From positions 3,406-67,405 of the IMG/VR virus record IMGVR_UViG_3300030090_003111: DNA of 64,000 nt, one strand, 5' to 3'. The position numbers were made by a program, and so were the translations under genes. The notes beneath the pieces were generated by a model. It did no database searches. It worked only from the letters and a program-made list of their open reading frames with translations, and was not told the DNA's origin. The stretch comes from a virus (taxonomy: Duplodnaviria; Caudoviricetes). Positions 11,942 to 62,692 of this stretch are shown one piece after another (position 1 is the first letter of the stretch; the number at the start of each line of letters is the position of its first letter).

Positions 11942-14900
11942 ATGGCAAATAGAATTTACCACAAGCGTAGTGCAAAAGGGTCAGACGTACCCTCTAATGC
12001 AGATTTAGAATTAGGTGAATTGGCAATCAATACGTATGATGGTAAACTATTTACTAAAAAAGATGATGGTAGTCCAAGCATTGTAGAATTAGGTGACAAA
12101 GGTCAAAAAGGAGATATAGGAGCTACAGGTTCTCAAGGACCTGCTGGACCACAAGGAGACCAAGGAGATAAAGGTCTAAAAGGTGTAGGAGGAGATAAGG
12201 GAGCCACTGGCGACAAAGGTCAAAAAGGTGGAGACGGACCTTCAGGTCCCGGTGGACCACAAGGTGACAAAGGTCAGAAAGGTGTTACTGGTGACGGAGG
12301 ACCAACTGGACCTACAGGACCACAAGGTGCACAGGGAGAAAAGGGTAGTTTAGGAGATAAAGGAGCTACTGGTGCAACTGGACCACAAGGTGATAAAGGT
12401 CAACAGGGAGCTACTGGTACTCAAGGACCTACAGGACCACAAGGTGGAAAGGGAGAACCCGGCGACAAAGGAGCTACGGGTGCTGGTGGACCACAAGGTG
12501 ATAAAGGTGCTACAGGTGCTGGAGGAGATAAAGGACAGAAAGGTGTAACTGGAGATACAGGACCACAAGGAAGTCAAGGACCTCAAGGAGCTCAAGGACC
12601 TCAGGGAGATAAAGGTGATACTGGAGACAAAGGAGCTACAGGTGCTCAAGGACCTACTGGACCTACAGGACCAACTGGACCACAAGGGGTTGCTGGTAGT
12701 GACGGTAGTGATGGTTCTGATGGAGACAAAGGAGCTCAAGGTGCTACTGGACCACAAGGTGACAAAGGACAGAAAGGTGTAACAGGTGCTACTGGACCAC
12801 AAGGAGACCAAGGTGCTACAGGACCTCAAGGAGATAAAGGAGCTACAGGTGCTCAAGGACCTACAGGACCTGACGGACCTACAGGACCACAAGGAACTGC
12901 TGGTGACAAAGGTGCTACAGGTGGACAAGGAGATAAAGGTGCAACTGGTGCTACAGGACCTCAAGGACCTACTGGAGACAAAGGAGCTACAGGAGCTACA
13001 GGACCACAAGGTTCTAAAGGAGCTACTGGTGCTACTGGACCTCAAGGAGATAAAGGAGCTACCGGTGATAAAGGTATAAAAGGAGAAGTTTCATTACCTG
13101 CTTCTACTTTCTTAATGCATGTAGATTTAACAGATACTACTACTGCACCATCGACAAACGGAGAGATTGTTTTAAACCATGCTACATTAGCAAACGTTAC
13201 ACAGTTATCTATTTTTGAAGATGATGAGAATGGTGGTACACTAGATAATATTCTAACAGATATGTTAGTAACAGGTAATAGAATTAAATTAGAAAAGAAA
13301 GATGACATAACCAATTATGTTACTTTCGAAATGACTGGCAATGGTTCTGACCAAGGTGATTACAGAAATGTTGCAGTTACACATGAGGGCGGGGCAAGTG
13401 GAGCAGTCACTTCAACGTTCTCAGATGAAGATGATGTTTATTTTTCCCTTTCGATGAAAGGAGATACAGGACCTCAAGGACCTGTCGGACCACAAGGACC
13501 TACAGGACCACAAGGAGATAAGGGTGCAGCTGGAGACAAAGGTGCTACTGGTGCACAAGGAGATAAAGGAGCTACAGGAGCTACAGGACCTCAAGGACCT
13601 CAAGGAGACAAAGGAGCTACAGGTGCAGTGGGACCTCAAGGACCTACTGGGGACAAAGGAGCTACAGGAGCTACTGGACCTGATGGACCTCAAGGACCTA
13701 CAGGAAGCACAGGACCACAAGGAACTGCTGGTGACAAAGGTGCTCAAGGAGCTGCTGGTGATAAAGGAGCCACTGGTGCTACAGGACCTCAAGGACCTCA
13801 AGGTGACCAAGGAGATAAAGGTGCAACAGGAGCTCAAGGTGATAAAGGAGCTGCTGGAGATAAAGGCGCTACTGGTGCTACAGGACCTCAAGGACCTACA
13901 GGAAGTACAGGACCACAAGGACCTGCTGGAGATAAAGGAGCTACAGGAGCTACAGGACCAACTGGACCTGATGGACCAACTGGACCTCAAGGAGCTCAAG
14001 GTGATAAAGGAGCGACAGGCGCTCAAGGACCTACTGGAGACCAAGGACCTACTGGAGATAAAGGAGCTACAGGAGCTACAGGACCTCAGGGAGACAAAGG
14101 TGCTACAGGAGCTACAGGACCTACAGGACCTACAGGACCTACTGGACCTCAAGGACCACAAGGTGCAACAGGAGACAAAGGAGCAACAGGAGACAAAGGA
14201 ACTCAAGGTGCACAAGGTGACAAAGGTGCTACTGGTGCAACTGGACCACAAGGACCTCAAGGAGATAAAGGAGCAACTGGTGCTCAAGGACCACAGGGAG
14301 ATAAAGGTGCTGCTGGTGACAAAGGTGCTCAAGGAGCTGCTGGTGATAAAGGAGCTACTGGTGCTACAGGAGACCAAGGACCACAAGGTAGTAAAGGAGC
14401 TACAGGAGCTACAGGACCTACAGGACCTGATGGACCAACTGGACCTACAGGACCACAAGGTTCTAAGGGAGCAACCGGTGCAACTGGACCTCAAGGACCT
14501 ATCGGAGATAAAGGTGGTAAAGGTGCAACAGGAGACCAAGGACCACAAGGAGATAAAGGATTAAAGGGTGCTGGTGGTGACAAAGGAGCTACAGGAGCTA
14601 CTGGACCTCAGGGACCTCAAGGTGCACAAGGACCTACAGGTGCTCAAGGTACTGTTGGTGGTGTTAACTATACCTTTAGTACAACCACTACTGATTCAGA
14701 CCCCGGCCAAGGTGTTGTTAGATTTAATAATTCAACTTTTGGTTCTATTACAAAAATATTTATAGACGATGCAGACAGTAATGGTACTGATTTCCAAACA
14801 TGGATAGATTCCTTCGATGATACAGACGAAGGTACATTGACAATCAATTCTGCTGATGCTACAGATGCAACATTCTGTAACTTTACAGTAGATTCAATTA

Positions 14901-17470
14901 CAGGAGCTTCTGGATATACAAAACTTAATGTTTCACCATTATCAGGTGCAGCACCAAGTAATTCAGAAGCAATAGTATTACAATTCTCAGCTTCTGGTTC
15001 AAAAGGAGCTCAAGGTGCACAAGGTGACAAAGGAGCTACTGGTGCAACTGGACCTCAAGGACCTCAAGGAGATAAGGGTGCTGCTGGAGACAAAGGTGCT
15101 ACTGGTGCACAAGGACCTCAAGGAGACAAAGGTGCTGGTGGAGACAAAGGTGCTACTGGTGCTACAGGACCACAAGGACCTCAAGGTGACCAAGGAGATA
15201 AGGGTGCTACTGGTGCAACCGGACCTCAAGGTCCACAAGGTGATAAAGGAGCTACTGGTGCTACAGGACCTCAGGGAGATAAAGGTGCTGCTGGAGACAA
15301 AGGAGCTACAGGTGCTACAGGACCCGATGGACCACAAGGACCTGCTGGACCTACAGGACCTCAGGGAGACAAAGGAGCTACTGGTGCTACTGGACCTCAG
15401 GGAGATAAAGGTGCTGCTGGAGACAAAGGTGCTCAAGGAGCTCAAGGACCTCAAGGTTCAACAGGACCTCAAGGACCTCAAGGAGCTGCTGGTGACAAAG
15501 GAGCTACAGGAGCTGCTGGTGATAAAGGAGCTACTGGTGCAACTGGACCACAAGGACCGCAAGGTGACCAAGGAGATAAGGGTGCTACTGGTGCAACCGG
15601 ACCTCAAGGTCCACAAGGAGCTCAAGGACCTCAAGGTTCAACAGGACCTCAAGGACCTCAAGGAGCTGCTGGTGATAAAGGAGCTACTGGTGCAACTGGA
15701 CCACAAGGACCTGACGGTGACAAAGGAGCTACAGGAGCTGCTGGACCACAAGGACCTACTGGAAGCACAGGACCTACAGGACCTAATGGACCACAAGGAG
15801 ACAAAGGTGCTGGTGGTGACAAAGGACCAACTGGTGAACCAGCTGGTTTACAATATAACTTTGACACAAGTACAACCATGGCCGACCCCGGTTCTGGAGA
15901 ATTCAGATTAAACCATGCAACCGCAGCAAGTATTACCTCTATAGCATTTTCATCATTTGACCAGAATGCTGGTTCAAATTCATTATATACATATCTAGAC
16001 GCATATGACGGCTTCCCAACCGATATACGTTTAGTTGATATGTCAGACAATACTAATTTTATAATTCTAAGAACAGATGCATCTAGTGCATATCAAACAG
16101 ATTTTGCTAATACACATGTTCTTGTTACAATATCATCTGTACAAGCCAAGAGTGATACCGCAGTGAGTAACATATTCTCATCTGGTAGAACAGTACAGTG
16201 TACTTTTGCAGCTACAGGAGCCAAAGGTCAGAAAGGTGCCGCTGGAGGCACTGGACCTACAGGACCTACAGGACCTACAGGACCTACTGGACCACAAGGT
16301 TCACAAGGTTCACAAGGTTCACAAGGTGCTCAAGGAGACAAAGGTCAGAAAGGAGAAGAAGGTTCTGGCGGTGGTGGCGGAGGTAAAGGTCAAAAAGGTG
16401 AGCCCGGAGCTACAGGACCTACAGGACCACAAGGACCTGCTGGAAGTGATGGTAGTGATGGTGACAAAGGAGCTACTGGTGCACAAGGACCAAGCGGAAC
16501 TGGACCTACTGGACCTCAAGGACCTGCTGGACCAACTGGACCACAAGGTGATAAAGGTCAGAAAGGAGAAGAAGGTGGTGGAGGTTCTGGTTCTAAAGGA
16601 CAAAAAGGTGAACCCGGTGGTACTGGTTCACAAGGACCTGCTGGACCTACAGGACCTACAGGACCAACTGGACCAACTGGACCAACTGGGCCTACAGGAC
16701 CACAAGGAGACAAAGGAGCTACAGGTTCACAAGGACCTGCTGGACCTCAAGGTTCTCAAGGTTCTCAAGGACCTCAAGGAGACAAAGGAGAACCCGGAGA
16801 CCCCGGTCCTCCGGGAGAAGGAGGCGGTGGAGCATGTCACTTCCCACCCGGTACTTGTTTCGCACCCGGCACACCTGTCATGTTAGCTGATGGTAGTAGC
16901 AAACCTATCGAAGAGATAGACGACGGTGAAGAGATATTAATTTACAATATGGAAACTGGTGAGTATGACGTAGAAGTATTAGAACATGGTTCCTACGCTA
17001 CATACAGAAACCACTTCATAGATTTACACTTTGACGACGGTTCAAAGATTACATCTACACATGAACACCCTTATATAACAGCAGATAAGGAATGGGCTGT
17101 TGTAGAATTTGAAGACTGGATGAGAGAAAGATATCAAGAAGACACAGTATTTAAGAATATAAAACTTGGTTCTGTACTAGGTATACCAACAGGTGCTAAA
17201 GGATTAGGTATCAAAGGTAAGCAACTAGTAGAGAAGAAAGTAGTTGATGTAGATAAACACTGGTCTACTGGTGACAGACAAAATGCAGTATGGAATATTA
17301 TAACCAAATCTAACAACTACGTTGTTGATGGTTTAGTGGTTGGTACAGAAACCGACATGGACTGGGACGAGATAAACGTTTACGCTCTAACAGAGTATGG
17401 TATGTCTTTAGAAGATATGTATCAGATGTTTATCGAAGAAGGAACAATACCAGAGAGGAGGTCTAAATGA
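11942..17470 (+). CDS. Collagen triple-helix fibre: Mtd_N-like N-terminus, Gly-X-Y runs with three globular inserts, C-terminal Hint domain
   Basis: N-terminus IYHKRS...[21 protein letters not shown]; long GXY repeats; Hint [13 protein letters not shown]...THEH...YVVDGLVV at 16856-17347. Confidence 0.92.
12092..16821 (+). repeat. Coding collagen Gly-X-Y repeats ([15 protein letters not shown])
   Basis: 9-nt periodic repeats such as GGACCACAA/GGAGATAAA/GGAGCTACA, interrupted at about 13088-13460, 14657-14995 and 15841-16210. Confidence 0.95.
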
Positions 17471-41418: not shown

Positions 41419-41767
41419 TTTTCCATTCCTCGTACATTTGTGCTACAATACCTAAATCACCTATGTGTTTATAAAACTTTGCATGAGATGGTGTCTCATC
41501 TACGTTTATATAATCAATTGGTCTGTCAAATATTAATCTATTATATGGTATTTGATTTAATTGTAACCATTGTTCAGTAGCAAATTTAACTGCTAAATCA
41601 TTAGGTCTCTCACACCATATAGTTATGTGGTGTTCTTTATCAGCCCACTGCATAAACTCTACTACATCTTCTATTGGTTTACAGTCTTTTATATATTCTA
41701 CTATACCAAACTGTATACCTTTAGCAGGTGTACATATAATATTGTCTAAACCGAAAACTAGGTTCAT
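41384..41767 (-). CDS. HAD-superfamily-like protein (first catalytic Asp replaced)
   Basis: LVFGLDNIIC, ITIWCER, TEQWLQLNQIPYNRLIF. Confidence 0.6.
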   Translation of the reverse strand: MNLVFGLDNIICTPAKGIQFGIVEYIKDCKPIEDVVEFMQWADKEHHITIWCERPNDLAVKFATEQWLQLNQIPYNRLIFDRPIDYINVDETPSHAKFYKHIGDLGIVAQMYEEWKNDKTKREKNKH

Positions 41768-41958
41768 TGTTTAATTGCAATAATATCTTTTTTGTTTACA
41801 ATAACTGTGCCTTTATCGCCAGTTAGATACACAAAATTCTCGTCGTCGTTGGTTATTTTACCACGACCAACTTTCGTTCTATCCTCTTCTCTCCAGACTA
41901 TCTTAACTTCATCGTCCTTAAGGAAAGTCATTAATCCTTTCATATCATTTTCTTCCAT
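41764..41958 (-). CDS. Small Sm/LSm-like beta-barrel protein
   Basis: VKIVWRE...GRGKITNDDENFVYL...TVIVNKKDIIAIK; GGAG RBS. Confidence 0.5.
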   Translation of the reverse strand: MEENDMKGLMTFLKDDEVKIVWREEDRTKVGRGKITNDDENFVYLTGDKGTVIVNKKDIIAIKQ

Positions 41959-42016: not shown

Positions 42017-42030
42017 TATATAAAGCTTTC
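42017..42030 (-). promoter_or_regulatory. BRE-TATA promoter of primase operon
   Basis: Exact motif. Confidence 0.8.
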
Positions 42031-42836
42031 TATACTTCTAGGTTTAATTCCACCTCTTTTTCAGTAGTTCCTGATAAAGATAGGAATATTTCCGACTTGT
42101 AATCTAATACAACTTCGGGAAACCTTCTACCTGCTACAAGTGTGATAAATCCTTGGTCACCACCGAAAAGATTCTCATCCCACCATCCTTCTGGTATAAG
42201 TTTCATTACTTCTCCATAGAAGTCTATCATATATTCTCTTTCACCTATCCATGTCCCACTACATAGATGTTTAAAAGGAGAACCCAGCCACTCATAGACT
42301 TCTTCTGTTTCTCTGACCTTAGCTAGTTCATTCTTCCATGAACCTAAATCTAAAGGTGCATCTCCTGATGAATCTGCTAGTCCTTGTCCTGTTTTTAGAT
42401 TAGGCCATTGATTTAACTCTGCACCAAACACGCAACGTGCTGTTTTCTTAACAAACTTACCTAATGCTTCATCACAAGCATCGTAACCTAACAACATAAC
42501 ATCAGTAGCATCTAAAGCCATTACATACTTAGTTTGTACAATCTTTAAATACTTCTCCATTTTTCTAATTTTATCTAAGAAATCAAATGGTTGTTTCATA
42601 GGTATAACTATAAGTCTGTCTTTTATACCCATCTGTTGCATACAGTTTTCTAACAACGTAGATTCACCGGGCACACTCCATGTTATAACAGTTAGTTCAT
42701 CACTTAACTGTCCATGACAAGGATTTTCTTTGAAATAGTGTGTAACTGCATCGTCCCAGTATTTTTCGTGCTTTGCGGGGCCATTGGCGTGCACGATAGA
42801 CACCATGTTGTTAGATAGTTTGTTTCTAAAATACAT
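42030..42836 (-). CDS. PLOD/LH3-type glycosyltransferase domain, circularly permuted
   Basis: LTVITW, LDATDV, FGAE..WP, LCSGTWIG, GDQGFIT, LDYKSEIF match LH3 GT motifs recalled from memory; HANGPAK segment is at the N-terminus. Confidence 0.8.
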   Translation of the reverse strand: MYFRNKLSNNMVSIVHANGPAKHEKYWDDAVTHYFKENPCHGQLSDELTVITWSVPGESTLLENCMQQMGIKDRLIVIPMKQPFDFLDKIRKMEKYLKIVQTKYVMALDATDVMLLGYDACDEALGKFVKKTARCVFGAELNQWPNLKTGQGLADSSGDAPLDLGSWKNELAKVRETEEVYEWLGSPFKHLCSGTWIGEREYMIDFYGEVMKLIPEGWWDENLFGGDQGFITLVAGRRFPEVVLDYKSEIFLSLSGTTEKEVELNLEV

Positions 42837-43429
42837 TAAAGAGACTCCACCATCTCAGTCATATCTGGTTGTTTTTCCCATAGATTTATAGCTATGGCGT
42901 ATCTCTTACCCTTTGTTATCTCAGTAACAGCATGTAACTGACCTGCATCAAATATAACTAATCTATTAGGCACTGGTGCAATCAATTCGTATGGTGCTGT
43001 CAAGTCCATCTCTTTAGTGTCATATATCTTCAGATATCCACCTTCACACTGTGGCTCTCCCATAGGAGGATAATATACTGTTCCTAGTTTAGGACTCACT
43101 ATTTCTCCTGTCTGGTGCCAGTGTGCTTCATCTTTATCAAAGTGATGGTTTAACGCATAACCTTGATTAATAGCTGCACCATTAGTGATAACTTTATCTT
43201 TAGATAATATACCTGTCCAGTGTTCAAAACCTTCTAGAGATGTACCTTGTAGTTGTGGTGGACAATTGTTTCTCCAAATAGTTTCAATCAATTCATGTCT
43301 AGTGTCCATAGGAGAATTACTATTCCACCATCCTTTCCACCACCTGTAACCTTCTTTCCAAAAATCTTCATCTTTTTGAATTTTAGAAAGTAATTTTTCG
43401 TCCTTTACAAAATCGTCAATTATTATCAT
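42836..43429 (-). CDS. 2OG-Fe(II) oxygenase (prolyl-4-hydroxylase-like)
   Basis: HFD...EGGYL...NRLVIFD...LHAV...KRYAIAINLW; ATGA coupling gives start 43429. Confidence 0.88.
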   Translation of the reverse strand: MIIIDDFVKDEKLLSKIQKDEDFWKEGYRWWKGWWNSNSPMDTRHELIETIWRNNCPPQLQGTSLEGFEHWTGILSKDKVITNGAAINQGYALNHHFDKDEAHWHQTGEIVSPKLGTVYYPPMGEPQCEGGYLKIYDTKEMDLTAPYELIAPVPNRLVIFDAGQLHAVTEITKGKRYAIAINLWEKQPDMTEMVESL

Positions 43430-44070
43430 CGGTAATGGTCTCCTCCAACCCATAATACAAGTGATTCTCTAGTACCTTTGGTAACTTCAGAAACTCTATG
43501 CATCATATAAGATGGGAATATTACTACTGTTCCTTTACCACGTGGTGCATCTAATGGATTTTGTCCTCTCCATAGTTGTAACTTACCACCTTCATAGTCA
43601 TCTGGGTCTGTAAGTTGTACGGTCAAACTAACCTTTCTATGTCTCTGCATACCGTGTCCTGCATCCATGTGCCAGTCATAGTGGCCTCCGCCTTCCTTAT
43701 ATATGGTATGTTGTATAGCATCTCTACCGTGAGACAAATTAAAGTTCCATACATTTCTATTGGCTTCTTCTATCATGGTCCATAATCTTTTATATAACCA
43801 TTCGAAATCATCACCAGTATAAACTTTCTTACCATTTGTATATGGTGCGTTACCATATAACCATCTTACTTCTGATTTTCTTATACCATCGTTCGCAGTA
43901 TCACTGTCACCTGTCGTACCTGATTCAGGTGGTACTCTCATAGCTTCCTTTTGTATTGTTTTTATTTCTTCATCGGTAAATGCTTTTTCAAAATAATAAA
44001 ATTCAGCCATATTTACATGACTCTCATCTATTCCATCTACCCACATATTTACTTTTTCTAATTCCATCAT
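43426..44070 (-). CDS. 2OG-Fe(II) oxygenase (PKHD/P4H-like)
   Basis: HYDWHMD, RKVSLTVQL, YEGGKL, IFPSYMMHRV, GTRESLVLW. Confidence 0.9.
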   Translation of the reverse strand: MMELEKVNMWVDGIDESHVNMAEFYYFEKAFTDEEIKTIQKEAMRVPPESGTTGDSDTANDGIRKSEVRWLYGNAPYTNGKKVYTGDDFEWLYKRLWTMIEEANRNVWNFNLSHGRDAIQHTIYKEGGGHYDWHMDAGHGMQRHRKVSLTVQLTDPDDYEGGKLQLWRGQNPLDAPRGKGTVVIFPSYMMHRVSEVTKGTRESLVLWVGGDHYR

Positions 44071-44621
44071 TACTCCTCATTAAAAAAGAATGTTTGAAAC
44101 AGTCTTGCTGATTCTAAATCTTCTCCAAAATAATCATCTGCTGCGTGCCATAAATCACCATTAAATATTATAGCTCTGTTATAAACGTTAGATATAACAT
44201 CTTCCCTAGTCCATTTATCATAATTATTACCATCACCTTCTATAGCTGCTCCATTATCATCAAAGATACGAGAGCCTGTTTCTTTATGTTTATAAAAGGA
44301 TGTACCTGAATTAGGTGCAGGGTCTGGATGTAAATATACTAAACATGACCAGTCTGTAGCAGTATCTGCGTGTACCCATGTTGGTGTATCCTTTGTTACA
44401 TACTGAAAAGAACCTGTGTATTCTCCTACTTTCCAGTGCATTTCATCTATGTTAATATTCATTATTCTTTCTAGATGTGCTCTAACATCGTCTTCTACGA
44501 ATGTTTCTGTTCTCATGCCGGGATAATTACCTTTGACTCCAAACTCTTGTGATAGAGCAAATTCTCTAATCGCGTCAGGGTCATGATAAAATCCATCAAT
44601 TACTATTATTTCTCTATTCAT
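44070..44621 (-). CDS. 2OG-Fe(II) oxygenase (DUF6445-like)
   Basis: IIVIDGFYHDPDAIREFAL, YPGMRT, WVHAD, SGTSFYKH, NRAIIF...WHAA...RLFQTFF. Confidence 0.85.
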   Translation of the reverse strand: MNREIIVIDGFYHDPDAIREFALSQEFGVKGNYPGMRTETFVEDDVRAHLERIMNINIDEMHWKVGEYTGSFQYVTKDTPTWVHADTATDWSCLVYLHPDPAPNSGTSFYKHKETGSRIFDDNGAAIEGDGNNYDKWTREDVISNVYNRAIIFNGDLWHAADDYFGEDLESARLFQTFFFNEE

Positions 44622-45229
44622 TATAACTCCTTTTTAACAAAAGAGACAATAATGTATCTTTTCCCTTTTGTAGTTGGTCTTCCACCATGTCTGTGTGTCA
44701 CACTAGGAAATAGTGTACATGCACCTGCTTTAGGATTAGCTAGTATTTGTTGTCTTGGAAACCATGTTCCTCCACCCTCAAAGTTAGTATTTAATCCTAC
44801 TGTAAAAGTATAATCAGCATGGTCATGGTGTATATCCAAAGCTGACTGGTCTTCATCAGTATACTTAGCTATAAAATCTTCTGATGTAGCATTATTCCAT
44901 GATGTACCTACTAGTCCCCATATATGTCTAGCTATAGGGTGGCAATATGTTTTAAGAACGTAGTTATACATTTCTTTTAAATCTAAGTCATCAAGTAACA
45001 TATCAGTTGTTGGGTAAAAGTTATGTCTTTCTTTAGTCCACTTGCCATTATCTTCAGCGTGTTCTATTATTAAATCACAGAATTCTTTTGTAAATAAAGG
45101 GAACCTATAAATCTCAGGACCTACTTCTTCTACTACTAAATCCCACTGTTTATCTCTAGTTCCTCTAGATATCATCTTCTTTGCCCATGCTTCTGGGTCT
45201 ATCTTATATGCACTTAGTTTGGGGTTCAT
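44621..45229 (-). CDS. PLOD-like lysyl hydroxylase catalytic domain
   Basis: IYRFPLFTKEFCD..I...E..G.W, PTTD, FIAKY..EDQ..L..HHD..YT..VGLN..FEGGGT, HRHGGRPTT.G.RYIIVSFV parallel the LH3 C-terminal domain. Confidence 0.85.
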   Translation of the reverse strand: MNPKLSAYKIDPEAWAKKMISRGTRDKQWDLVVEEVGPEIYRFPLFTKEFCDLIIEHAEDNGKWTKERHNFYPTTDMLLDDLDLKEMYNYVLKTYCHPIARHIWGLVGTSWNNATSEDFIAKYTDEDQSALDIHHDHADYTFTVGLNTNFEGGGTWFPRQQILANPKAGACTLFPSVTHRHGGRPTTKGKRYIIVSFVKKEL

Positions 45230-46011
45230 TTCACAGCTCCGTCAGGTAGACCTGTATCACTACCTACTACAGCAAATTCTCTTTGCCATACTACATGTGG
45301 GTCTACTGCATATGCATTCATGGTGGGAGGGTATTTAAAGCTTACGTCGCTACGTGGATGTTCAACAAATGTAGCAGATAAAAACTCATCTGCTGGTATT
45401 ATAGCTTTGTGTACATTATATTTTCTTATCTTTTCTATACCTGATTTAGATAATACATACCCATACGTGCAGTATGAAAAGTTTGGTTTGACTATACCTG
45501 ATACTATAGGTTCTTCAGGTATTGTTTGTGGTACTCTTCCAAGATATAACAAATCCCAATCTATACCCATAGTTTCTAAAGTATCTATGGTTACATCTCT
45601 TTTAATTTCCATAGCTTTAGTAAATACAGCGTCATCTTCAAGTATAGTTACAGGTCCATCACATTCATTCCATATAGACCAATGGCTTAGTGTACAACCT
45701 ATTTCTCCTCCTGTTAAAGGTCTTGACCACCATTTAGCCCATGATTGGTCTATTGATAGAGCTTCTCCTTCATCCATCTCCCAATCAAATAGACCGAATC
45801 CATTCTCTTCTAACCACTTATCCGTTATATCTTTTCCTACTTTGTTGTAAGGCCAGTGTGTGGTAAACTCAACACGTAAGTCAGGGGCTATAAAACCTTC
45901 TTCATTCTTTCTACCTTCTTCTTCTATTTCAAAACCATTTTCTCTTAGCATGGTATCACAAAGAAGTCTTCTATCTTCTCTGGTTGGTATGTTAATGATA
46001 TAGGTCTTCAT
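45226..46011 (-). CDS. GT25 glycosyltransferase, procollagen galactosyltransferase (COLGALT)-like
   Basis: RPLTGGEIGCTLSH..IW, ILEDD, WDLLYLGR, SYCTYGYVLS..G..K, IPADEFL....HP...AYAVDP...SDT; ATGA coupling to polB gives start 46011. Confidence 0.85.
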   Translation of the reverse strand: MKTYIINIPTREDRRLLCDTMLRENGFEIEEEGRKNEEGFIAPDLRVEFTTHWPYNKVGKDITDKWLEENGFGLFDWEMDEGEALSIDQSWAKWWSRPLTGGEIGCTLSHWSIWNECDGPVTILEDDAVFTKAMEIKRDVTIDTLETMGIDWDLLYLGRVPQTIPEEPIVSGIVKPNFSYCTYGYVLSKSGIEKIRKYNVHKAIIPADEFLSATFVEHPRSDVSFKYPPTMNAYAVDPHVVWQREFAVVGSDTGLPDGAVK

Positions 46012-48227
46012 ACCCACTCCATAAGACTCTGTTGTTTCCTATCTAGTAAGGTGAGCGGTGCTTTCTTTTGTATAGTATGTGCTAGACCAAATTTATCTAA
46101 TAACTTAGATACAATGTTCCAATAATACTGTACATCTAAATCTGACTTAGATTTCACAAGTTCCTTTATCCTATACCCATCTTTTGTTTTATAATACTCG
46201 TAGGTAGTTCTTATCTCTGGTTGTATACCTACTGTTATACCTTGTTCTACTAATGGTATCATCATGTCCGTTTCTGATTTATAATCTTCGAACTTCCTGT
46301 TTAGTGTCCTTCTTTGTAAGAACATCTCCATGGGTAACTCATCAAAGTTATATATATCTTCAATAAACTTCGAATTCACTCTATTATCCAATCTTGCGTC
46401 AATTAACCTATCAAGAATGGATTTGTAAAACTCGCTTCTTGTTGAAGCTTTAAAAGTCGAGCCATGTTTGGTAAGACTATTGTCCTCATTACGAAGGCAA
46501 TAATTACCAATTTGTATCCAAATTCCTTCTTTAAAAACATCTTTATCCAACGATATCCATTTAGATTCTACATTTGGTATTGTAGCTTCTAATATCAATC
46601 TTAATCTTTTAGTTAGCCATTCTACGTCAATATCACAATTAGTATTGATACCATCAGTGTGAACATAAACCACAGCTTTATCTCCATATTTTTTCCTGAT
46701 GAGTTCGATTCCCGTAGTAAGTAAAAACCTAGCAACCGCAGTAATTGCAATACCAACAGACATATCACCGTAGTTGAGGTAAGGGTTTGTATTAGCTCCA
46801 TAGAATGTATTCACCATAATCTTTAACGCATTGGACTTACTATCTCCTTCTTTAGTTCCCATTTCCTTAAAAGGTTTCCTAAGTTCTGTGAATTGTTTAC
46901 ACATATCATAGAGACAGCTGCGTCTATTACTGTCTATTCTAACCTTTACTCTTTTACCTATACGATTGTCAGGTATATAAAGGTTTCCATTCTTGAACTC
47001 TAATTTGTCACTATACTCATCATATCCTACAATTGTAGTAGTATCAGGACCTAAATTAAGAGCCATAGCTATAGATGGATAGAAAGAAGCAAAGTCCACT
47101 TTTATATTCTTAGCGTGGAATCCCGGTTCAAACAAATCTATATATGCAGCTTGAAAGTTACCTTTAGGTCCTTTGTATATATCTGTATGTCTGTCTTTGT
47201 TTATATCATCTGTTATGATATTCTGTTCATACAGCGCTCTACCTTGTAGAATCTTTGTGACATATGAACTTGGTGCGTTGATATATGTTTCTAGTGGCAC
47301 ACCAATAAATTCCGCAGTGAACTCCAGTCTTGGATAGTAGTGGTCAAAAAGATACTTTGTACAATCTACATCAGACAGGACATAATCGTGGATTTCAGAT
47401 AAGCTGTAATCAAGTAAATCCTTTTCAGCAAAGTCCAATTCAATTGGTTCTAGACCGAAATATTTACTCACAGGCTTAAGACCACGTGGTAATCCTGAGA
47501 GTGCGTAATCAAGGCGTGTATGTCTTAAGATATCAAGAACTACTCTACCTCCAGCACGCATTCGTAAATCGTCAGAATCTTTCTGAGGTTGCCAACCATA
47601 GTCTGACCCATCACGATTCAACAATTTCTTGTAGTTACGTATGCCATGATAGGCTGCACGATATAGAATCTGAGGGATATCATAACCTACAAGGTTATAT
47701 CCATAGATTATATCTGGGTCATATTCTTTAACGAACTTAGCAAAATCCATAAGGACTTGCTTGTCATCTTCTCCATCCCATAGATAGACTTCACGTTCTC
47801 CGGTTGAAGTGACAATCCCGATTGCCACTACGGGGTAGTTTTCCCCGAAGGGAAACGACCCGTCAGGACTATGAGTCTCTATATCAAAACAGAGAGATTT
47901 CACAGGTTGGTCATTTGCGAATTTATTAAAGTAATCTGGATGCTCTATTACGAGTCTATCCATAATATTTTCTCTACCTCCATCAAGTATTAGGCTCGAT
48001 GGAAGCTCTTCACCGGCTCTATAATACTCCTTTCGCAGCAAGATAGAGCCCTCTTTGCCTGTTCTATTGTACTGTTTGCCAGTCTCAGCATCAGGTACAT
48101 AACAGTAGGGCTTATAAGGTACAACGTGGCTTTCTTTCTTACCATTACGCCACATTATACTTTGTAAGTTACCAGTCTCTAGGTTAACTGTGTTGGGGCT
48201 ACATATACCAATAAGGGGTACTTTCAC
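46008..48227 (-). CDS. polB: Family B DNA polymerase with 3'-5' exonuclease
   Basis: FDIET, YNLVGYDIP, YVLSD exo motifs; DFASFYPSI, KIMVNTFYG, YVHTDG polymerase motifs. Confidence 0.95.
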   Translation of the reverse strand: MKVPLIGICSPNTVNLETGNLQSIMWRNGKKESHVVPYKPYCYVPDAETGKQYNRTGKEGSILLRKEYYRAGEELPSSLILDGGRENIMDRLVIEHPDYFNKFANDQPVKSLCFDIETHSPDGSFPFGENYPVVAIGIVTSTGEREVYLWDGEDDKQVLMDFAKFVKEYDPDIIYGYNLVGYDIPQILYRAAYHGIRNYKKLLNRDGSDYGWQPQKDSDDLRMRAGGRVVLDILRHTRLDYALSGLPRGLKPVSKYFGLEPIELDFAEKDLLDYSLSEIHDYVLSDVDCTKYLFDHYYPRLEFTAEFIGVPLETYINAPSSYVTKILQGRALYEQNIITDDINKDRHTDIYKGPKGNFQAAYIDLFEPGFHAKNIKVDFASFYPSIAMALNLGPDTTTIVGYDEYSDKLEFKNGNLYIPDNRIGKRVKVRIDSNRRSCLYDMCKQFTELRKPFKEMGTKEGDSKSNALKIMVNTFYGANTNPYLNYGDMSVGIAITAVARFLLTTGIELIRKKYGDKAVVYVHTDGINTNCDIDVEWLTKRLRLILEATIPNVESKWISLDKDVFKEGIWIQIGNYCLRNEDNSLTKHGSTFKASTRSEFYKSILDRLIDARLDNRVNSKFIEDIYNFDELPMEMFLQRRTLNRKFEDYKSETDMMIPLVEQGITVGIQPEIRTTYEYYKTKDGYRIKELVKSKSDLDVQYYWNIVSKLLDKFGLAHTIQKKAPLTLLDRKQQSLMEWV

Positions 48228-49024: not shown

Positions 49025-49194
49025 ATATCTAACTCCCTGTATTCATCAGAAGATAGGAAACCAGTCAATGTTCCTCTACCTCCGATGTTTCTTCTCATAT
49101 ATCTTAAAAAGTCTATTGTAACTTCTAATCCTTTGTCTTCTAAATCTTCGTTGAGATATTGTAAATGTCTAATCAAATCTTCTATCACTATCAT
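49021..49194 (-). CDS. Hypothetical 57-aa protein
   Basis: Hand-translated MIVIEDLIRHLQYLNEDLEDKGLE...; ATGA coupled at both ends. Confidence 0.65.
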   Translation of the reverse strand: MIVIEDLIRHLQYLNEDLEDKGLEVTIDFLRYMRRNIGGRGTLTGFLSSDEYRELDI

Positions 49195-49793
49195 TCTTTC
49201 TCCGCTACTTTAAGATACGCTTTGTTTGCTTTAAAGATAGGACCACGTAACTCTTCAGGTATATAGTTTATACCTTCCATGCCTTCTTCTAGGTTCTCTC
49301 TGAATAAACGTATGTATATATCGTGATTAGCACTTATATATTCATAGCCCTTTTCTAAGTCTTCCTCGTAATCTCTTACAAAGTTAATGATTTGATACGC
49401 TCTACCTAATGCTCTTGCATATCCATCAGCTTCAGGTGGACAACCAAGTATACGTGCCATCATACAACCTACTGACTCTGAAGAACCTTTACAGTATTCT
49501 AACATAGATACCATAGTATGTTTCTTTCTAACTAAGTCAGTAAACATAGCGTGATGGAAATCCTCTAACCATTCACCTTCAAACTGATATTTATCACTAA
49601 CCTCATGGAATTGTTCGATGACCATTCTGTATTGTTTGAAATCATTTTCAGCTTCTACTCCTTCTACCATCTCATCTATCACTCGTAGATAAGCGTATAG
49701 CTTATATATATCTTCTCTTATACTTCTAGGCCATTCATCAACACACGCAAAGAACGTAGTGCTGAACTCTTCCATTATATCTTTACATCTCAT
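49191..49793 (-). CDS. Phytoene/squalene synthase family (CrtB/HpnD-like), compact
   Basis: STTFF, LYAYLRVIDEMVE, LEYCKGSSESVGCMM, ARALGRAYQIINFVRDYEED. Confidence 0.82.
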   Translation of the reverse strand: MRCKDIMEEFSTTFFACVDEWPRSIREDIYKLYAYLRVIDEMVEGVEAENDFKQYRMVIEQFHEVSDKYQFEGEWLEDFHHAMFTDLVRKKHTMVSMLEYCKGSSESVGCMMARILGCPPEADGYARALGRAYQIINFVRDYEEDLEKGYEYISANHDIYIRLFRENLEEGMEGINYIPEELRGPIFKANKAYLKVAEKE

Positions 49794-50068: not shown

Positions 50069-50360
50069 CTTTTAGTACTCCTCTTTCTTTCCTATCAGTG
50101 AGTTTTAAGTAGTTCTCGTGTAATACTTCTACCAATGTCATGTCATACATATCAAATAGTCTTGCCATATACCACATTACATCACCAAGTTCTCCACGAA
50201 TCTCTTTGTACTTATCTCCATCTCCACGAACTTGTTTCTTGTATTTACCCAATACTTCTCCAACTTCGTTTGCTAAACCTATCATTAGGTATTCTTCTTC
50301 CTTTTCTTTAGGGTAGACTGCTGTCTCCCTTGTCCATTTCTTATATGTTTCAAAATCCAT
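50049..50360 (-). CDS. MazG-like NTP pyrophosphohydrolase
   Basis: GLANEVGEV..KYKK...ELGDVMWY...N..KL.DR..RG...G.GDNR. Confidence 0.9.
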   Translation of the reverse strand: MDFETYKKWTRETAVYPKEKEEEYLMIGLANEVGEVLGKYKKQVRGDGDKYKEIRGELGDVMWYMARLFDMYDMTLVEVLHENYLKLTDRKERGVLKGDGDNR

Positions 50361-50689
50361 TATATCACTAATTCCTCTGGTACCATATCTCTACGGTATA
50401 ACCAGCTTCTTTCTGCGGGTAGATATCTATATACTAAGTCAGCCTTTATATCACCTTGTATGGGCCAAGGCTTTATCAGTATCAAATCATTTGGTCTACA
50501 CCACATTCTACGTTTAAGTTTGCCGGGAATCCTTACCATTCTATTGTTACCATCTTCACAGAGAGCTGACATACGTGAGCCGCCAGACATTTCTCTGACG
50601 ACTGCATACTGCATATCACCACGTGGTAATTTACCCGCTCTCTTCTCTGTGCTTCCAGCTTTTGATTTCCTCGACTTCTTCTTTCCCAT
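50360..50689 (-). CDS. eif1a: Archaeal translation initiation factor aIF-1A
   Basis: LP...QYAVVREMSGGSRM..LCEDG..RMVRIPGKLKRRMW....DLILIKPW..QG..KADLVYRY...E..WL; GGAG RBS. Confidence 0.92.
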   Translation of the reverse strand: MGKKKSRKSKAGSTEKRAGKLPRGDMQYAVVREMSGGSRMSALCEDGNNRMVRIPGKLKRRMWCRPNDLILIKPWPIQGDIKADLVYRYLPAERSWLYRRDMVPEELVI

Positions 50690-57978: not shown

Positions 57979-58170
57979 GCGTTTGAGAGAAGCAACAGCC
58001 TTACTTAAAGCTTTGGCTATTACTTCTTTAGTTCTCTTACGACCATCACTACCATATAGGTTCAGGCCATATTTCTTTATCAGTGCATTGATTTGTATAG
58101 CGGTGGGGCGGACGGATTTGTATTCCTTCCGAATTAACCGTCTAATGATATCAATGCGACTAACTTGCAC
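57976..58170 (-). CDS. Small basic hypothetical protein
   Basis: GGAG upstream of GTG; overlaps ligase stop. Confidence 0.55.
   Translation of the reverse strand: MQVSRIDIIRRLIRKEYKSVRPTAIQINALIKKYGLNLYGSDGRKRTKEVIAKALSKAVASLKR
58002..58015 (-). promoter_or_regulatory. Candidate intragenic BRE-TATA (CAAAGCTTTAAGTA) for the ncRNA
   Basis: Matches consensus at most positions; predicted TSS about 57979, 11 nt before the first helix; lies inside a CDS so could be chance. Confidence 0.45.
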
Positions 58171-59029
58171 GTATAGACTCCGGTATCTGTGAGTATAGAC
58201 ACTCTGTCAACGACTTATCATCACGCCAACTATAGAACTTAGGATGACGAACGGACCCAGATGGGAACCAGCCATTACCTTTGGCAGTGAATACTTGACC
58301 GATATACTTGTCGGGATTGTCAGTGAACTCACGTCGCATAGCTTCAGTAAGACCACCACACTTTACGTCACAAGGCTTGTCAAACAGACTACCTCTGACA
58401 GCACCTACTTGACCAGCATACTTAGACTCAGGGTCAGCCATATCGAAACCAATACACATATACTCAATCTCTACCCGTTGTTTGATACGGATGTTTGCTT
58501 GAGGATAGTCATAGGCTTCGTTCTGTTTGAATACTAGACCCTCGAAGCCAGACATCTCTACGTAGTATTCCCACAGGTCTTCTACGTTATGAGTAGTATG
58601 AGCCATATCATAAGTGGGTGATACTCTGAAGTATTGTGATAGATACTTGTCTTTTAGTTTAGGTATAACATACTCGGCGATGTAAGATACATAGCCTTGT
58701 CTCGCACCGTATATCTCTTTGGATACATTACTACCTCGATACACAATACAATCAAAGGCATAGAACGCTTGGTTTGTATGAACAGGATGATTCTTGTTGT
58801 TTATATACTCACCTATAACTTCGTAGTGTATACCTTTGTCTTTTCCTTTATATACCCCGTGCTTCTTGAGTTTACCATTACGAGAGAATATTGCATACTC
58901 ACCGTCTTGGATAACCATTCTACCCCATATACCGTCATACTTAGGTTGAATATATCTGTATTGTGACAGAGATATATCATCCATATTGTCTTGGGTATAC
59001 TCGCTATACTTTGGTCTGTCTGTTATCAT
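58160..59029 (-). CDS. lig: ATP-dependent DNA ligase
   Basis: QPKYDG, GEY, FYAFD, EGLVFK, RIK, C-terminal OB fold RHPKF..WRDDK. Confidence 0.92.
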   Translation of the reverse strand: MITDRPKYSEYTQDNMDDISLSQYRYIQPKYDGIWGRMVIQDGEYAIFSRNGKLKKHGVYKGKDKGIHYEVIGEYINNKNHPVHTNQAFYAFDCIVYRGSNVSKEIYGARQGYVSYIAEYVIPKLKDKYLSQYFRVSPTYDMAHTTHNVEDLWEYYVEMSGFEGLVFKQNEAYDYPQANIRIKQRVEIEYMCIGFDMADPESKYAGQVGAVRGSLFDKPCDVKCGGLTEAMRREFTDNPDKYIGQVFTAKGNGWFPSGSVRHPKFYSWRDDKSLTECLYSQIPESIRAS

Positions 59030-61137
59030 ATCTTTAACACCTTCCTAATTAGTTTACTAAGCTCGATTGATAGCTTAGATGAATCTTCAATATACTTGTA
59101 GTTGGTAAACATATTACGCATCCAATGTTCGGATGCACCGGCAAAGCCTAACTGTATGACTGACCAGCCACGTGACTCTACGTGTTTGACACACTTGGCA
59201 GTATGCTCAATTGCACTTGCACCTCTATATGAAGCCGCTGAAGGCTGACCATCACTAAAGATAATCATAAGCTTATGCGACTGAGGTTGGTCAGTTTGTT
59301 CTACTACTCTGTCGGCTGATGCAACGATAGCATTACCGTCACGGTTTTCATACCTTGCACGCATACCACCCATACTTGTAGGGCGGTCGGAAGTGCGAGG
59401 ACCGAAGTATTCTATCATATCAGTCTGACCTCTACCACCTTCGTCGGCACTGTGACCGAATACCCAAAGGTTTAGTTGGTCATTACCACTCAATGCTTCT
59501 TTGACAGATATAGCGGCATCACGTGCGTGACGCATAGTGTATGAACCCATACTACCTGACTCGTCTACAAGTAGACATACATCCAATGGTTTATCCTGCT
59601 CAACAATGTCGAACTTGAATAGGTCAGAGCGACGCATAGGTATACGATGTAGCATACGCTTGTCAAGCTTACCTACCTTTTGGTTCCTGACAGTATACTT
59701 GTTCATATTACCATATAGTTGTATCTTACGCTTGAGTGAACCAATCACACCTTTCTTACGTGAGACAGCATCTCTATATACTTCTTTGTCTCTCGCAGTA
59801 TCTCTAGCAGTAGTCCAATTGATTTGTCTTTGACCATCAGCTATAGCGAGGCCCTTGTCCATATCATACTCTTCGTAGTCTGACTCTATCAAGCTACGTA
59901 TCTCTTCGATAACTTCACTATCAAGACCTTCACTTATATAGTCACTAAGCTCTACCCTTGCTTCACCACGTGCGTCACGTATAGGTGACTTACGTTCGAG
60001 TGCATCTTTGGCACGGGAGATAGCATCATCAGTCATACGGTCAAGAATCTTATCCATCTCACTGTCAGATAGTTCTATGTCTGATTCTGCAAACCTTGAT
60101 TTCATATCAGCGAATGCGTCATCTACCTCTGACATTACTTCTTTCATATCTATCTCATCGTCTTTAGCCATACGTTCGGCTGCTTTCTTAAGATAGTTGT
60201 ATAGGGATAAGATACAGGTATAAGTATTTTCTCTACTATCAAGACCCGTAGCTAATGCACGGGCAAAGAAGCGTATATGTGGGGCGTGTCGCTTTTTTCT
60301 ATCGTCATCAATAAGTGTAGGATAACGTATAAGCATCATAAGAGTATTGATAAGGTCAGCTAATGGTTGTGAAGATTCTTCGTCTATACCACTATCTGCG
60401 AAGTAATGTTCTTTAGTCTTCTCGATATAGTGAACGAAACCACCACACGTTTTAGCTAATTGCTTTTCGATATACTCATCTTCCACAATATTACATATAG
60501 AATGCAACAACCATTGTTCGTCACCATTCACACATGAGTCATACTTTTGTTTACGTTCCCACTCCATAAGGTCTTTGGAGTGTATAAGGTGTAGCTTTTC
60601 ATGGATAGCGAGACCTGACACAACGTCTAACTTTTCGTCATCGTGTTGTATCAGTTTACCATCTACTACTATTCTACCACTACGGATGTCAGTATAACCT
60701 GATGATGTGTTGGCAAACTCAAGAGTATGCTTGACAGTAGGGTCAACTACTTTACATAGGGAGTCAAGGTGTGACTTATGTTTAGCTAATCTCTTAGCAG
60801 TATCGTCATAACCATACGAACTACCTCCCCACATACCACTCAGTGTGGTAGAGCCACTGCCTGACCACCATGAGCTACCGCTACCCCATGTGAAACCACC
60901 ACCGGTTCTACCCCAAAGGTCACCGCTGGAGTATACGCTTGGTGCAGGTGTGATAGCTGTCTTAGCTGTGGTAGGATGAGCATACTCATCACCTACTACT
61001 CCATCAAGGTGGTTGCCACAGGTAGAACAACACTCGTTGTCATCTTCTTTAGTCTTTACCCAATCCTGACAGGTATAACACCAGCCTTCACTCTTATCGG
61101 CTGAAACAGCCCAATCGTCTATAGTGTAGATATCCAT
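59026..61137 (-). CDS. vWA (CobT-like) protein with N-terminal HExxH metalloprotease-like domain
   Basis: AIHEKLH...NIVED..IE; MIDAS LVDESGSM, NRDG, IFSDGQP. Confidence 0.88.
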   Translation of the reverse strand: MDIYTIDDWAVSADKSEGWCYTCQDWVKTKEDDNECCSTCGNHLDGVVGDEYAHPTTAKTAITPAPSVYSSGDLWGRTGGGFTWGSGSSWWSGSGSTTLSGMWGGSSYGYDDTAKRLAKHKSHLDSLCKVVDPTVKHTLEFANTSSGYTDIRSGRIVVDGKLIQHDDEKLDVVSGLAIHEKLHLIHSKDLMEWERKQKYDSCVNGDEQWLLHSICNIVEDEYIEKQLAKTCGGFVHYIEKTKEHYFADSGIDEESSQPLADLINTLMMLIRYPTLIDDDRKKRHAPHIRFFARALATGLDSRENTYTCILSLYNYLKKAAERMAKDDEIDMKEVMSEVDDAFADMKSRFAESDIELSDSEMDKILDRMTDDAISRAKDALERKSPIRDARGEARVELSDYISEGLDSEVIEEIRSLIESDYEEYDMDKGLAIADGQRQINWTTARDTARDKEVYRDAVSRKKGVIGSLKRKIQLYGNMNKYTVRNQKVGKLDKRMLHRIPMRRSDLFKFDIVEQDKPLDVCLLVDESGSMGSYTMRHARDAAISVKEALSGNDQLNLWVFGHSADEGGRGQTDMIEYFGPRTSDRPTSMGGMRARYENRDGNAIVASADRVVEQTDQPQSHKLMIIFSDGQPSAASYRGASAIEHTAKCVKHVESRGWSVIQLGFAGASEHWMRNMFTNYKYIEDSSKLSIELSKLIRKVLKI

Positions 61138-61493
61138 TCGTCTATATTATCCTCTTCGTTCTTAGCTTCTAGTATAAGCTTCATCTCAAAACATTTCAAT
61201 GTTCTTTTCATAGCACCTATGCTACAGTCATATACAAATCTATCATCATCAGTGACCAAACCGTATGATATACTCAGTGCATCATTCATGTTCATAGTAG
61301 CAGTGGTGGGGCGGTCGGGAACTATACCTTCGGTTTTAAGCCTACGGTTATATGCTCCGACGTGTCGCCCTGTCACTTCGCTTAGTGGGAATACATCTTT
61401 TATACACTTAGCAACTAATGCAGGTTTGAGACCCATAGAAAGCAAACCCTTAGCAAGGGTATGCCAATATGTATCTTTCTTTCTACTAACCAT
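61119..61493 (-). CDS. Hypothetical protein
   Basis: ORF between MoxR ATPase and vWA gene. Confidence 0.7.
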   Translation of the reverse strand: MVSRKKDTYWHTLAKGLLSMGLKPALVAKCIKDVFPLSEVTGRHVGAYNRRLKTEGIVPDRPTTATMNMNDALSISYGLVTDDDRFVYDCSIGAMKRTLKCFEMKLILEAKNEEDNIDEWISTL

Positions 61494-62654
61494 TTAGTCT
61501 CCCATTGATTGTATAGTCTGCATAACTTTTACTCTTTCTGTATCGTCACCTGCTTGGATAGGATAGAATGGTAGACATACCTGCTTGAGTGCTTCAAGCA
61601 TAGTCATACCATCTGCAACGTATTCAGCAGTGGACAAACACATACGTGTAGATACAGCAGTATTCAACTCTTCCGATTTGTAGAGATTTCTGACTCTACT
61701 TGCGAAGTCAGTGATACGTTCAGCGTCTACATCAGAGATAGTAGGAACTCTTATCTTAAGAAGTTCTGCTTCTTTATCTGCTGGTAGATACTCTAACTCG
61801 TATATACCTCCGGTAAATCTATCTTTCCATGCTCTATCTAAGTCATGGGCCGCACCCAAATACTCTCTACCAATGTTGGCAGTAGCATAGAAGAAAGCAC
61901 CGTCGTTTATCTGAACGGTATCAGCGTCATCACTCTCATCGAGTGCTAAGTATTTCTGTCCGTCAAGGACAGGCATAAGGATATTAGCTAAGTCACCGGT
62001 TCTATCTCTCGTGACTTCGTCAAGCATAATGAATGCACCCTTGTCATCTTGTAGGGCAGAGACAAATCTGGATGGTTTGAAGAATGTCCCACGCTCACTA
62101 TCATATTTAGTGTCACCGAGTATCTTTGCAGATGGATTCATAGTGTCACCAAAGTTGAAAGCATAGAATGGTTTGTTGGATATATCCGCCAATATTCTAC
62201 CGAGACTACTCTTACCACATCCGGATGGACCGGTAATCAATATACTCTTACCTCTGAAGATGTTTCTAAGCATAGTATAAAATGTCATACTATCAGCGAA
62301 CTTGAACTCTTCAGGGATATCAACACTACCCTTCAGCTTAGATAGGACTGTTGGTATATGTGGGGCAGGTGGCTCAGGTTCTACTTCTTCTTCTGCAACA
62401 GCAGGAGTAGTAAAATGCCATGCGTCTATATCATCCACTATTTCACTCCATTCGGAACGGGAGATATACTCACTATCACTATCATATTCTCCACAACACA
62501 GTTCCATATAGTCACTGCGTAGACGGTGTATACGTGTCTCTTTGTCCATACCTTTATAGTATTCTGTTCCTACTTCATCGGGGGAACTATCCTCATCATG
62601 CACGGGCTCTCTATCATAAGATAGGTCACCTCTTTCTATGTCTTTATAACTCAT
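61494..62654 (-). CDS. MoxR/CbbQ/NirQ-family AAA+ ATPase (CobS-like)
   Basis: GPSGCGKS, IMLDEV, ATAN, LDRAWKDRF, STR; ATG 62654 lies downstream of the predicted TSS. Confidence 0.9.
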   Translation of the reverse strand: MSYKDIERGDLSYDREPVHDEDSSPDEVGTEYYKGMDKETRIHRLRSDYMELCCGEYDSDSEYISRSEWSEIVDDIDAWHFTTPAVAEEEVEPEPPAPHIPTVLSKLKGSVDIPEEFKFADSMTFYTMLRNIFRGKSILITGPSGCGKSSLGRILADISNKPFYAFNFGDTMNPSAKILGDTKYDSERGTFFKPSRFVSALQDDKGAFIMLDEVTRDRTGDLANILMPVLDGQKYLALDESDDADTVQINDGAFFYATANIGREYLGAAHDLDRAWKDRFTGGIYELEYLPADKEAELLKIRVPTISDVDAERITDFASRVRNLYKSEELNTAVSTRMCLSTAEYVADGMTMLEALKQVCLPFYPIQAGDDTERVKVMQTIQSMGD

Positions 62655-62692
62655 TGTTTTTCTCTTCGTTATGGTCAATAATGTTTTAGGGG

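Follow-up and report, generated by a model that had tools for sequence, protein, structure and literature searches.

The closest described systems for the gene considered here are the collagen-glycosylating enzymes of animals and giant viruses. The glycosyltransferase (GT) domain of human LH3 (PLOD3; structures 6FXR and 6WFV), a collagen galactosylhydroxylysyl glucosyltransferase, has a GT-A fold in which Asp112, Asp115 and His253 shape the Mn2+ site, Trp145 serves as a sugar gate and Asp190/191 are essential; the Tyr inside the DxYD motif stacks on the uridine, and Trp75 lies on a glycoloop formed by residues 72-87 (PMC6082870). In mimivirus R699 (9DYT, 9DZS, 9E92), which acts on collagen-type substrates, D83/D86 hold the Mn2+, H216 touches the sugar O2, K222 is a UDP-binding switch, and the sugar pocket contains K62, W118 and D163/Q164 (PMC12279948). 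We describe a relative of these enzymes encoded by an open reading frame (ORF) in a 64-kb stretch of viral DNA (64,000 nucleotides, positions 3,406 to 67,405 of the IMG/VR record IMGVR_UViG_3300030090_003111; the whole stretch is hereafter called the window). Sequence comparisons confirm this ORF as a natural circular permutant: a strand followed by HxNGPxK, which closes the canonical domain, stands at the N-terminus of the viral protein.

42030..42836, minus strand: permuted PLOD/LH3-type GT-A glycosyltransferase, 268 residues, whole ORF (PF25342, AlphaFold2 model, structure alignment)

The protein begins with MYFRNKLSNNMVSIVHANGPAK and ends with ...VVLDYKSEIFLSLSGTTEKEVELNLEV; both termini and the extent of the ORF, as given in an initial annotation of the window, are borne out by translation of the minus strand. 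Its start ATG shares bases with the TAA of the upstream oxygenase gene in a TAATG overlap. Quite probably, the product is a single-domain Mn2+- and UDP-sugar-dependent GT-A enzyme of the PLOD/LH3/R699 lineage, naturally permuted, that takes the last step of a viral collagen-lysine pathway. We lean slightly towards the broader proposal that one ancient permutation founded a family of more than 1000 clusters (at 50% identity), of which a viral branch completes an animal-like hydroxylysine-galactose-glucose (Hyl-Gal-Glc) pathway on the giant collagen fibre of marine archaeal tailed viruses.

A transposed C-terminal block at the N-terminus

The Pfam family GT_PLOD (PF25342) recognizes the protein above its gathering threshold (30.9 bits for a cut-off of 27, E 2e-7), with a match limited to residues 89-146 and profile positions 55-114 of 246; by comparison, positions 2-243 of the same profile are covered in the canonical protein P0179. 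A phmmer search of the PDB aligned the viral protein to LH3 in three pieces that are out of order (residues 91-147, 241-260 and 4-24 with residues 72-125, 186-205 and 218-238 of the LH3 chain index). A profile of 22 homologues returned the same three out-of-order pieces for LH3 and, more strongly, for R699 (residues 88-148, 179-258 and 8-24 with 64-125, 128-196 and 211-227 of the R699 chain index), which is its best PDB match (E 4.7e-8); relative to the numbering of the papers, the PDB chain index is shifted by +3 for R699 and by -23 for LH3. The initial annotation had already proposed that the two ends of the viral protein match LH3 out of order, and the searches agree independently. Its further proposal that the motifs LTVIT, DATD, FGAE..WP, LCSGTWIG and GDQ follow one another in LH3 order was confirmed by alignment.

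As a canonical reference we used seven proteins, four PLODs from metazoans and three fusion proteins from metagenomes, all seven of which carry the linear motif order DxxD, DDQ, HxNGP. The order in the viral GT is HxNGP (residue 16), DxxD (residue 109) and DQ (residue 227), and thus departs from the canonical one. For a rotation scan, the family alignment was rotated at 37 cut points, a hidden Markov model (HMM) was rebuilt for each, and every model was scored on the GT domains of five canonical proteins. Averaged over these targets, the best single-domain score rose from 54.7 bits in the native order to a plateau of 79-80 bits at cuts after residues 24-46, with all cuts outside this interval scoring below the plateau; coverage increased from 201 to 229 HMM positions at the plateau cuts, and the gain amounted to 20-29 bits in each of the five targets. 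An HMM of residues 1-24 alone found the correct HGNGP block, located after DDQ, in six of the seven full-length canonical proteins at 16-27 bits, and the best of 221 reversed decoys reached 5.7 bits.

When the rotated family was aligned with the canonical domains in MAFFT, the C-terminus (...VELNLEV) abutted Met1 (MYFRN...) with zero gaps, inside the canonical beta-hairpin. Because this gap-free junction falls within a hairpin that is continuous in the canonical domains, the cut appears to lie in the turn and to be clean within 1-2 residues. A single rotation restores the alignment of the swapped homologous segments, as expected of a circular permutant, and the clean circular permutation suggested at the outset is supported alike by the rotation scan, the HMM of residues 1-24, the junction alignment and the structure alignment described below.

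Predicted structure and active site

The protein can be divided into the following segments:

42765..42836, minus strand: residues 1-24, transposed block (strands 2-5, 10-12 and 14-16 plus HANGPAK), homologous to LH3 ~237-259 and R699 ~208-224
42702..42764, minus strand: residues 25-45, helix 25-36 plus loop, new connector to Rossmann strand beta-1 (DSSP, rotation plateau)
42033..42701, minus strand: residues 46-268, GT-A core, collinear with LH3 35-235 and R699 8-201 (structure alignment)
42297..42389, minus strand: residues ~150-180, clade-specific insertion (loop plus helix 164-183), not found in canonical PLOD GT domains

An AlphaFold2 model from the 22-sequence alignment reached a predicted local distance difference test score (pLDDT) of 91.3 and a predicted template modelling score (pTM) of 0.91, with residues 1-30 at pLDDT 87-91; its least confident part is the insertion at ~150-180 (pLDDT ~69 at 151-160). 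The top 15 Foldseek matches of the model in the PDB are all R699 or LH3, at template modelling (TM) scores of ~0.5. In VIA-align, model residues 44-268 align with LH3 35-235 (Z 18.1, root-mean-square deviation 2.3 A over 183 residues, 26% identity) and model residues 46-267 with R699 8-201 (Z 16.1), and other GT-A families gave Z values of at most 10.9. The predicted fold is a GT-A fold, with LH3 and R699 as the nearest solved structures. The sequential structure alignment halts at the final residue of the model, which corresponds to LH3 235, and leaves the transposed block outside it on both sides; LH3 from ~237 onward is what the N-terminus of the viral GT matches by sequence. In the model, the outermost elements are strands 2-5 (first) and 262-265 (last), as would be expected of an opened hairpin.

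The viral GT resembles the LH3 domain in its GT-A fold and in its DxxD motif, HxNGP His and Asp-Gln pair, and the gating Trp is common to both (W145 in LH3, W144 in the viral GT). It differs from LH3 in that the HxNGPxK block is N-terminal instead of C-terminal, in a 30-residue insertion at ~150-180, and in a chain that consists of one domain, with neither an accessory Rossmann (AC) domain nor a lysyl-hydroxylase (LH) domain; the lysyl-hydroxylase partner, which is fused in LH3, is a separate gene in the virus. R699 is likewise viral, but it combines the canonical order with an AC domain and comes from a giant virus of eukaryotes, whereas here a single permuted domain is encoded by a tailed virus of prokaryotes. 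The LH3/PLOD glucosyltransferase is of medical importance, and a compact relative with one domain of 268 residues could be useful for structural and inhibitor work; the permutation provides a natural experiment on which parts of a GT-A active site tolerate altered chain connectivity.

The catalytic motifs are placed as follows:

42771..42791, minus strand: HANGPAK, H16 to K22; H16 corresponds to LH3 His253 and R699 His216, K22 to R699 Lys222
42501..42512, minus strand: D109-A-T-D112, DxxD Mn2+ motif, corresponding to LH3 D112/D115 and R699 D83/D86
42147..42164, minus strand: G225-G-D-Q-G-F230, corresponding to LH3 Asp190/191-Gln and R699 D163/Q164, sugar pocket

All of the R699 residues D83/D86, K62, W118, D163/Q164, H216 and K222 have counterparts in the viral GT, namely D109/D112, K89, W144, D227/Q228, H16 and K22. 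Across the 22 homologues, D109, D112, H16, K22, K89, W144 and Q228 are invariant, as are N18, G19 and P20; D227 is kept in at least 90%, and GGDQGF as a whole is invariant or nearly so. In a wider set, at 21-64% identity, H16, G19, D109 and D112 remain invariant. The conservation of H16, D109 and D112 is in line with the earlier proposal that the metal-ligand His was moved to the N-terminus with the DxxD ligands kept, and we infer that H16 lies at the D109/D112 metal site.

The last elements of the canonical domain are a beta-hairpin, a strand with the His of the metal site, the loop NGPxK and a helix. We propose that the chain was opened in the turn of this hairpin and that the part after the cut (residues 1-24) was placed first, with a new helix-loop connector (residues 25-45) linking the transposed block to Rossmann strand beta-1. 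The active site would then be built from the pieces of LH3: D109/D112 and H16 would surround the metal, K22 would sit at the phosphates of UDP, and the sugar would be enclosed by K89, W144 and D227/Q228.

Chain interruptions near the same hairpin were observed in several other proteins. In P0177 (920 residues), a canonical PLOD-type GT is split by an S-adenosylmethionine (SAM)-dependent methyltransferase domain (~464-555) between DDQ (409) and HANGP (676), the part of the domain in which the permuted family has its cut; P0028, P0030 and P0181 carry insertions there too. The hairpin region thus looks like a site permissive for chain breaks and insertions.

A separate observation concerns the GT6 enzymes (GTA/GTB, alpha-3GalT), for which the VIA-align alignment spans model residues 6-264, including the N-terminal block. 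The LH3 and R699 alignments begin at model residues 44-48, and GT6 may carry an N-terminal element in a comparable place. As the closest relative, GT6 was rejected, given 7% identity and a Z of ~10.6.

A large family with the permuted topology

The same permutation, which the initial annotation had suggested looking for in other viral genomes, is not special to this virus and was found in hundreds of cluster representatives, both bacterial and viral. An exhaustive profile search returned 1107 representatives when the threshold was E<=1e-3, of which 413 also pass E<=1e-10; most of the proteins are 235-270 residues long and match collinearly from residue 1. Among 144 stand-alone matches, the strict pattern of an N-terminal strand plus His was present in 116, and in at least 138 after inspection, with H-x-[NP]-G after DxxD in five. 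By these sequence patterns, the permuted topology defines a large unnamed family of bacteria and viruses.

The members are unnamed or annotated as 'hypothetical' (for example HEX8137935.1, from a Pyrinomonadaceae metagenome-assembled genome). Pfam models of the GT_PLOD type see only the middle of these proteins, covering profile positions ~53-195 in the stand-alone family, and hundreds of clusters therefore remain 'hypothetical'; recognition of the permutation, together with a rotated profile, would permit proper annotation. The stand-alone 'GT_PLOD-hit' proteins (~235-270 residues; bacteria and uncultured viruses) share with the viral GT the N-terminal strand and His followed by DxxD. Unlike it, most of them have motifs of the H-A-P-G type rather than HANGPxK, mostly lack FGGDQGF and the insertion at 150-180, and occur in polysaccharide or sulfation clusters. 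Some permuted GTs are fused to radical-SAM/B12 or GT2 domains; in P0045 (677 residues, JGI metagenome), a B12-binding plus radical-SAM enzyme lies N-terminal to a permuted GT (match 427-661). At locus L015 (on a 113-kb ENA metagenome scaffold), a sulfotransferase and a methyltransferase adjoin a distant permuted GT, and the surroundings contain an HNH gene and numerous short ORFs that lack annotation. This may be another large virus.

We calculated a quick, unrooted maximum-likelihood tree of 113 rotated permuted domains and seven canonical ones. The canonical rows form one side of a single branch (Shimodaira-Hasegawa-like approximate likelihood ratio test, SH-aLRT, 92), and none of 500 label shuffles was as clustered, which is compatible with a permutation that arose in one ancient event. 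Since other GT-A structures align from model residue ~46, the canonical order is most simply taken as ancestral and the permuted order as derived.

A pattern scan of 185,579 prokaryotic species genomes for the HANGP/FGGDQGF clade yielded 154 stretches and, at that sensitivity, no relatives. The viral GT had no tblastn matches at 1e-3 among 50,697 GenBank phage records, and PHROGs has no family for it. A full-text literature search found no description of a permuted PLOD-type or GT-A enzyme, and natural GT-A permutations that move a catalytic metal-site residue thus seem to be undescribed.

Neighbouring genes with a probable role in collagen modification

The GT is the last gene of a co-directional run that starts with a GT25 and continues with an LH-like gene, a DUF6445 gene and two 2OG-FeII_Oxy_3 genes (2OG, 2-oxoglutarate). 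A candidate substrate is encoded elsewhere in the window:

45226..46017, minus strand: GT25, homologue of the human ColGalT1 catalytic domain (PF01755 4.8e-15; ColGalT1 9evj/8zgc E 4e-21)
44621..45229, minus strand: LH-domain homologue, OGFOD2-like, 202 residues (LH3 513-714 E 4e-24; L230 6ax6 E 1e-20)
44070-44621, minus strand: DUF6445, 2OG-Fe(II)-oxygenase type, between the LH homologue and the GT
43426-44070, minus strand: 2OG-FeII_Oxy_3, PiuC/PKHD-like, between the LH homologue and the GT
42836-43453, minus strand: 2OG-FeII_Oxy_3, immediately upstream of the GT
11942..17470, plus strand: collagen-repeat protein, 1842 residues, candidate substrate (PF01391 E 2e-157)

The LH homologue keeps the HHD...H...R Fe/2OG ligands. 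The collagen-repeat protein contains 406 Gly-X-Y triplets, with X being Pro in 33%, Ala in 29% and Asp in 20%, and Y being Thr in 32%, Gln in 29%, Lys in 22% and Pro in 1.7%, which includes ~90 G-X-K sites. Collagen lysyl hydroxylases act on Lys at the Y position. At its C-terminus, the protein has a weak Hint/intein-like region that starts from a Cys (Pfam Hint-type matches below their cut-offs).

The trio of GT25, LH-like gene and permuted GT is kept, with shuffled gene order, in three viral contigs (L004-L006) at 32-36% identity. Collagen ORFs occur in each of the three relatives with a completeness of 60% or more (G001-G003), with open frames of 1780 and 2311 residues in G001 and G002. A canonical counterpart of this set is found in P0179 (876 residues, JGI metagenome, 20.7-kb contig), in which GT25 (5-182), a canonical PLOD-type GT (240-482) and an LH-like domain (694-783) form one protein, and mimivirus L230 similarly joins LH and GT. 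The activities combined in these fusions are those of the viral genes and are thus functionally linked; the fusions differ from the window in that their GT is canonical and fused, whereas the virus has separate genes and a permuted GT.

An LH homologue, a GT25, a GT and a substrate with G-X-K sites are thus encoded together, with conserved co-occurrence. The LH homologue, the ColGalT1-type GT25, the conserved trio, the fusion in P0179 and the Y-position Lys of the collagen-repeat protein together point to a Hyl-Gal-Glc pathway, in which the permuted GT is likely to act on the collagen-like fibre of the virus itself. In such a pathway, hydroxylation of Y-position Lys in the 1842-residue protein would fall to the LH homologue and the attachment of galactose to GT25; the permuted GT would then supply the second sugar, by analogy glucose. 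Taken with its neighbours, the GT suggests that hydroxylysine-linked collagen glycosylation is not confined to animals and giant viruses, from which it is known, but extends to tailed viruses that infect marine prokaryotes.

The run also contains four distinct genes of the 2OG-oxygenase type in immediate succession (42836-45229, minus strand); of these, only the LH-like gene is readily placed in a lysine pathway.

Alternative explanations and points of doubt

We considered whether there is a permutation at all, or whether convergence or chance, a wrongly assigned start, a gene fusion or an error of assembly accounts for the HANGP likeness. The out-of-order pieces obtained with the single sequence are each weak, with i-Evalues well above 1, as such an explanation would have it; against this stand a gain of ~25 bits on rotation, block-HMM scores of 16-27 bits compared with 5.7 bits for the decoy, and the same Met1 and motif in all 22 close homologues, so that we regard it as barely credible. 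Among its variants, a mis-called start or upstream fusion was rejected, as the upstream gene is an unrelated 2OG oxygenase joined by the TAATG overlap and Met1 is shared by the 22 homologues; an assembly artefact was rejected, as the nearest cluster alone is found on 31 contigs; and chance similarity was rejected because of the rotation-scan and block-HMM statistics. A real permutation could also work in trans, with the His/Lys block of the N-terminal strand completing the active site of a partner subunit in a three-dimensional domain swap. R699 and PLOD GT-AC constructs are dimeric, with a loop of one subunit affecting UDP-glucose binding in the other (PMC12279948), and with a connector of 20 residues, an N-terminal strand that is free could extend as far as the next subunit. 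The monomer model, however, places residues 1-30 confidently (pLDDT 87-91, pTM 0.91), and the junction alignment points to an intact intramolecular hairpin, which makes a swap improbable, if less so than the absence of a permutation. The acceptor, finally, might be something other than collagen, such as a different protein of the virion, a glycan of the host or hydroxylated bases in DNA, with the oxygenases being generic auxiliary metabolic genes (AMGs). Distant family members in polysaccharide-type clusters would fit such an acceptor, as would four different consecutive oxygenases, which exceed the needs of a lysine pathway. Papers on magroviruses (PMC5434244, PMC11706807), too, list 2OG oxygenases as generic AMGs; they make no mention of collagen. 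A literature search for magrovirus and collagen found nothing relevant. On the other side, the neighbours find their best PDB matches specifically in the lysyl-hydroxylase domain of LH3/L230 (4e-24) and in ColGalT1 (4e-21), the trio is conserved despite its shuffled order and fused in one natural protein, and giant collagen ORFs with ~90 G-X-K sites co-occur. A non-collagen acceptor is in our judgement unlikely, though a little less so than the domain swap.

The preferred interpretation, a permuted GT-A enzyme that ends a collagen-lysine pathway, has several observations against it. Thr111 takes the place of the uridine-stacking Tyr (Y114 in LH3, Y85 in R699); the loop equivalent to the LH3 glycoloop 72-87 is shorter by ~11 residues and carries an aromatic residue near the Trp75 column, which is F86 here and Trp in many relatives; and one Asp precedes the Gln, compared with the canonical poly-Asp run. 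Given these three changes, donor binding may differ. The statement of the initial annotation that the fold should remain catalytic therefore stands in part: the catalytic residues are retained and catalysis is likely to be so as well, with a donor specificity that may differ from that of the canonical enzymes. The proposed single origin of the family is drawn from a tree that is quick, unrooted and based on seven canonical rows. The distant cellular members occur in polysaccharide, sulfation and nonulosonate (NeuB) clusters rather than in collagen modules, so the acceptor is not readable from family membership, and a role in collagen modification would thus belong to the viral clade. The host assignment, set out below, is made from gene content.

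Genomic context and the host virus

The source record in IMG/VR is 67.4 kb long, with an estimated completeness of 96%. Genes for a terminase, a portal, an HK97-type capsid and a tape-measure protein in the window identify a tailed double-stranded DNA virus, which also encodes PolB, a ribonucleotide reductase and a primase-like gene. Further genes are of magrovirus-like content:

50360-50689, minus strand: eIF-1A-type factor (PF01176, 2e-15)
58160-59029, minus strand: ATP-dependent DNA ligase
59026-62678, minus strand: CobS/CobT-like AAA+VWA pair

The magroviruses of Marine Group II archaea have a gene content like that of the window (PMC5434244, PMC11706807), and by this gene content the virus is probably a magrovirus-like, archaeal tailed virus.

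Directly downstream of the GT lies a 64-residue ORF (41764-41958, minus strand) with no Pfam match. In one relative, P0003 (357 residues), the GT reads through into a homologue of this ORF, and the small ORF is therefore conserved beside the GT. Inside the replication-gene block, the window further encodes a squalene/phytoene-synthase family protein of 200 residues (PF00494, 4e-28; 49191-49793, minus strand).

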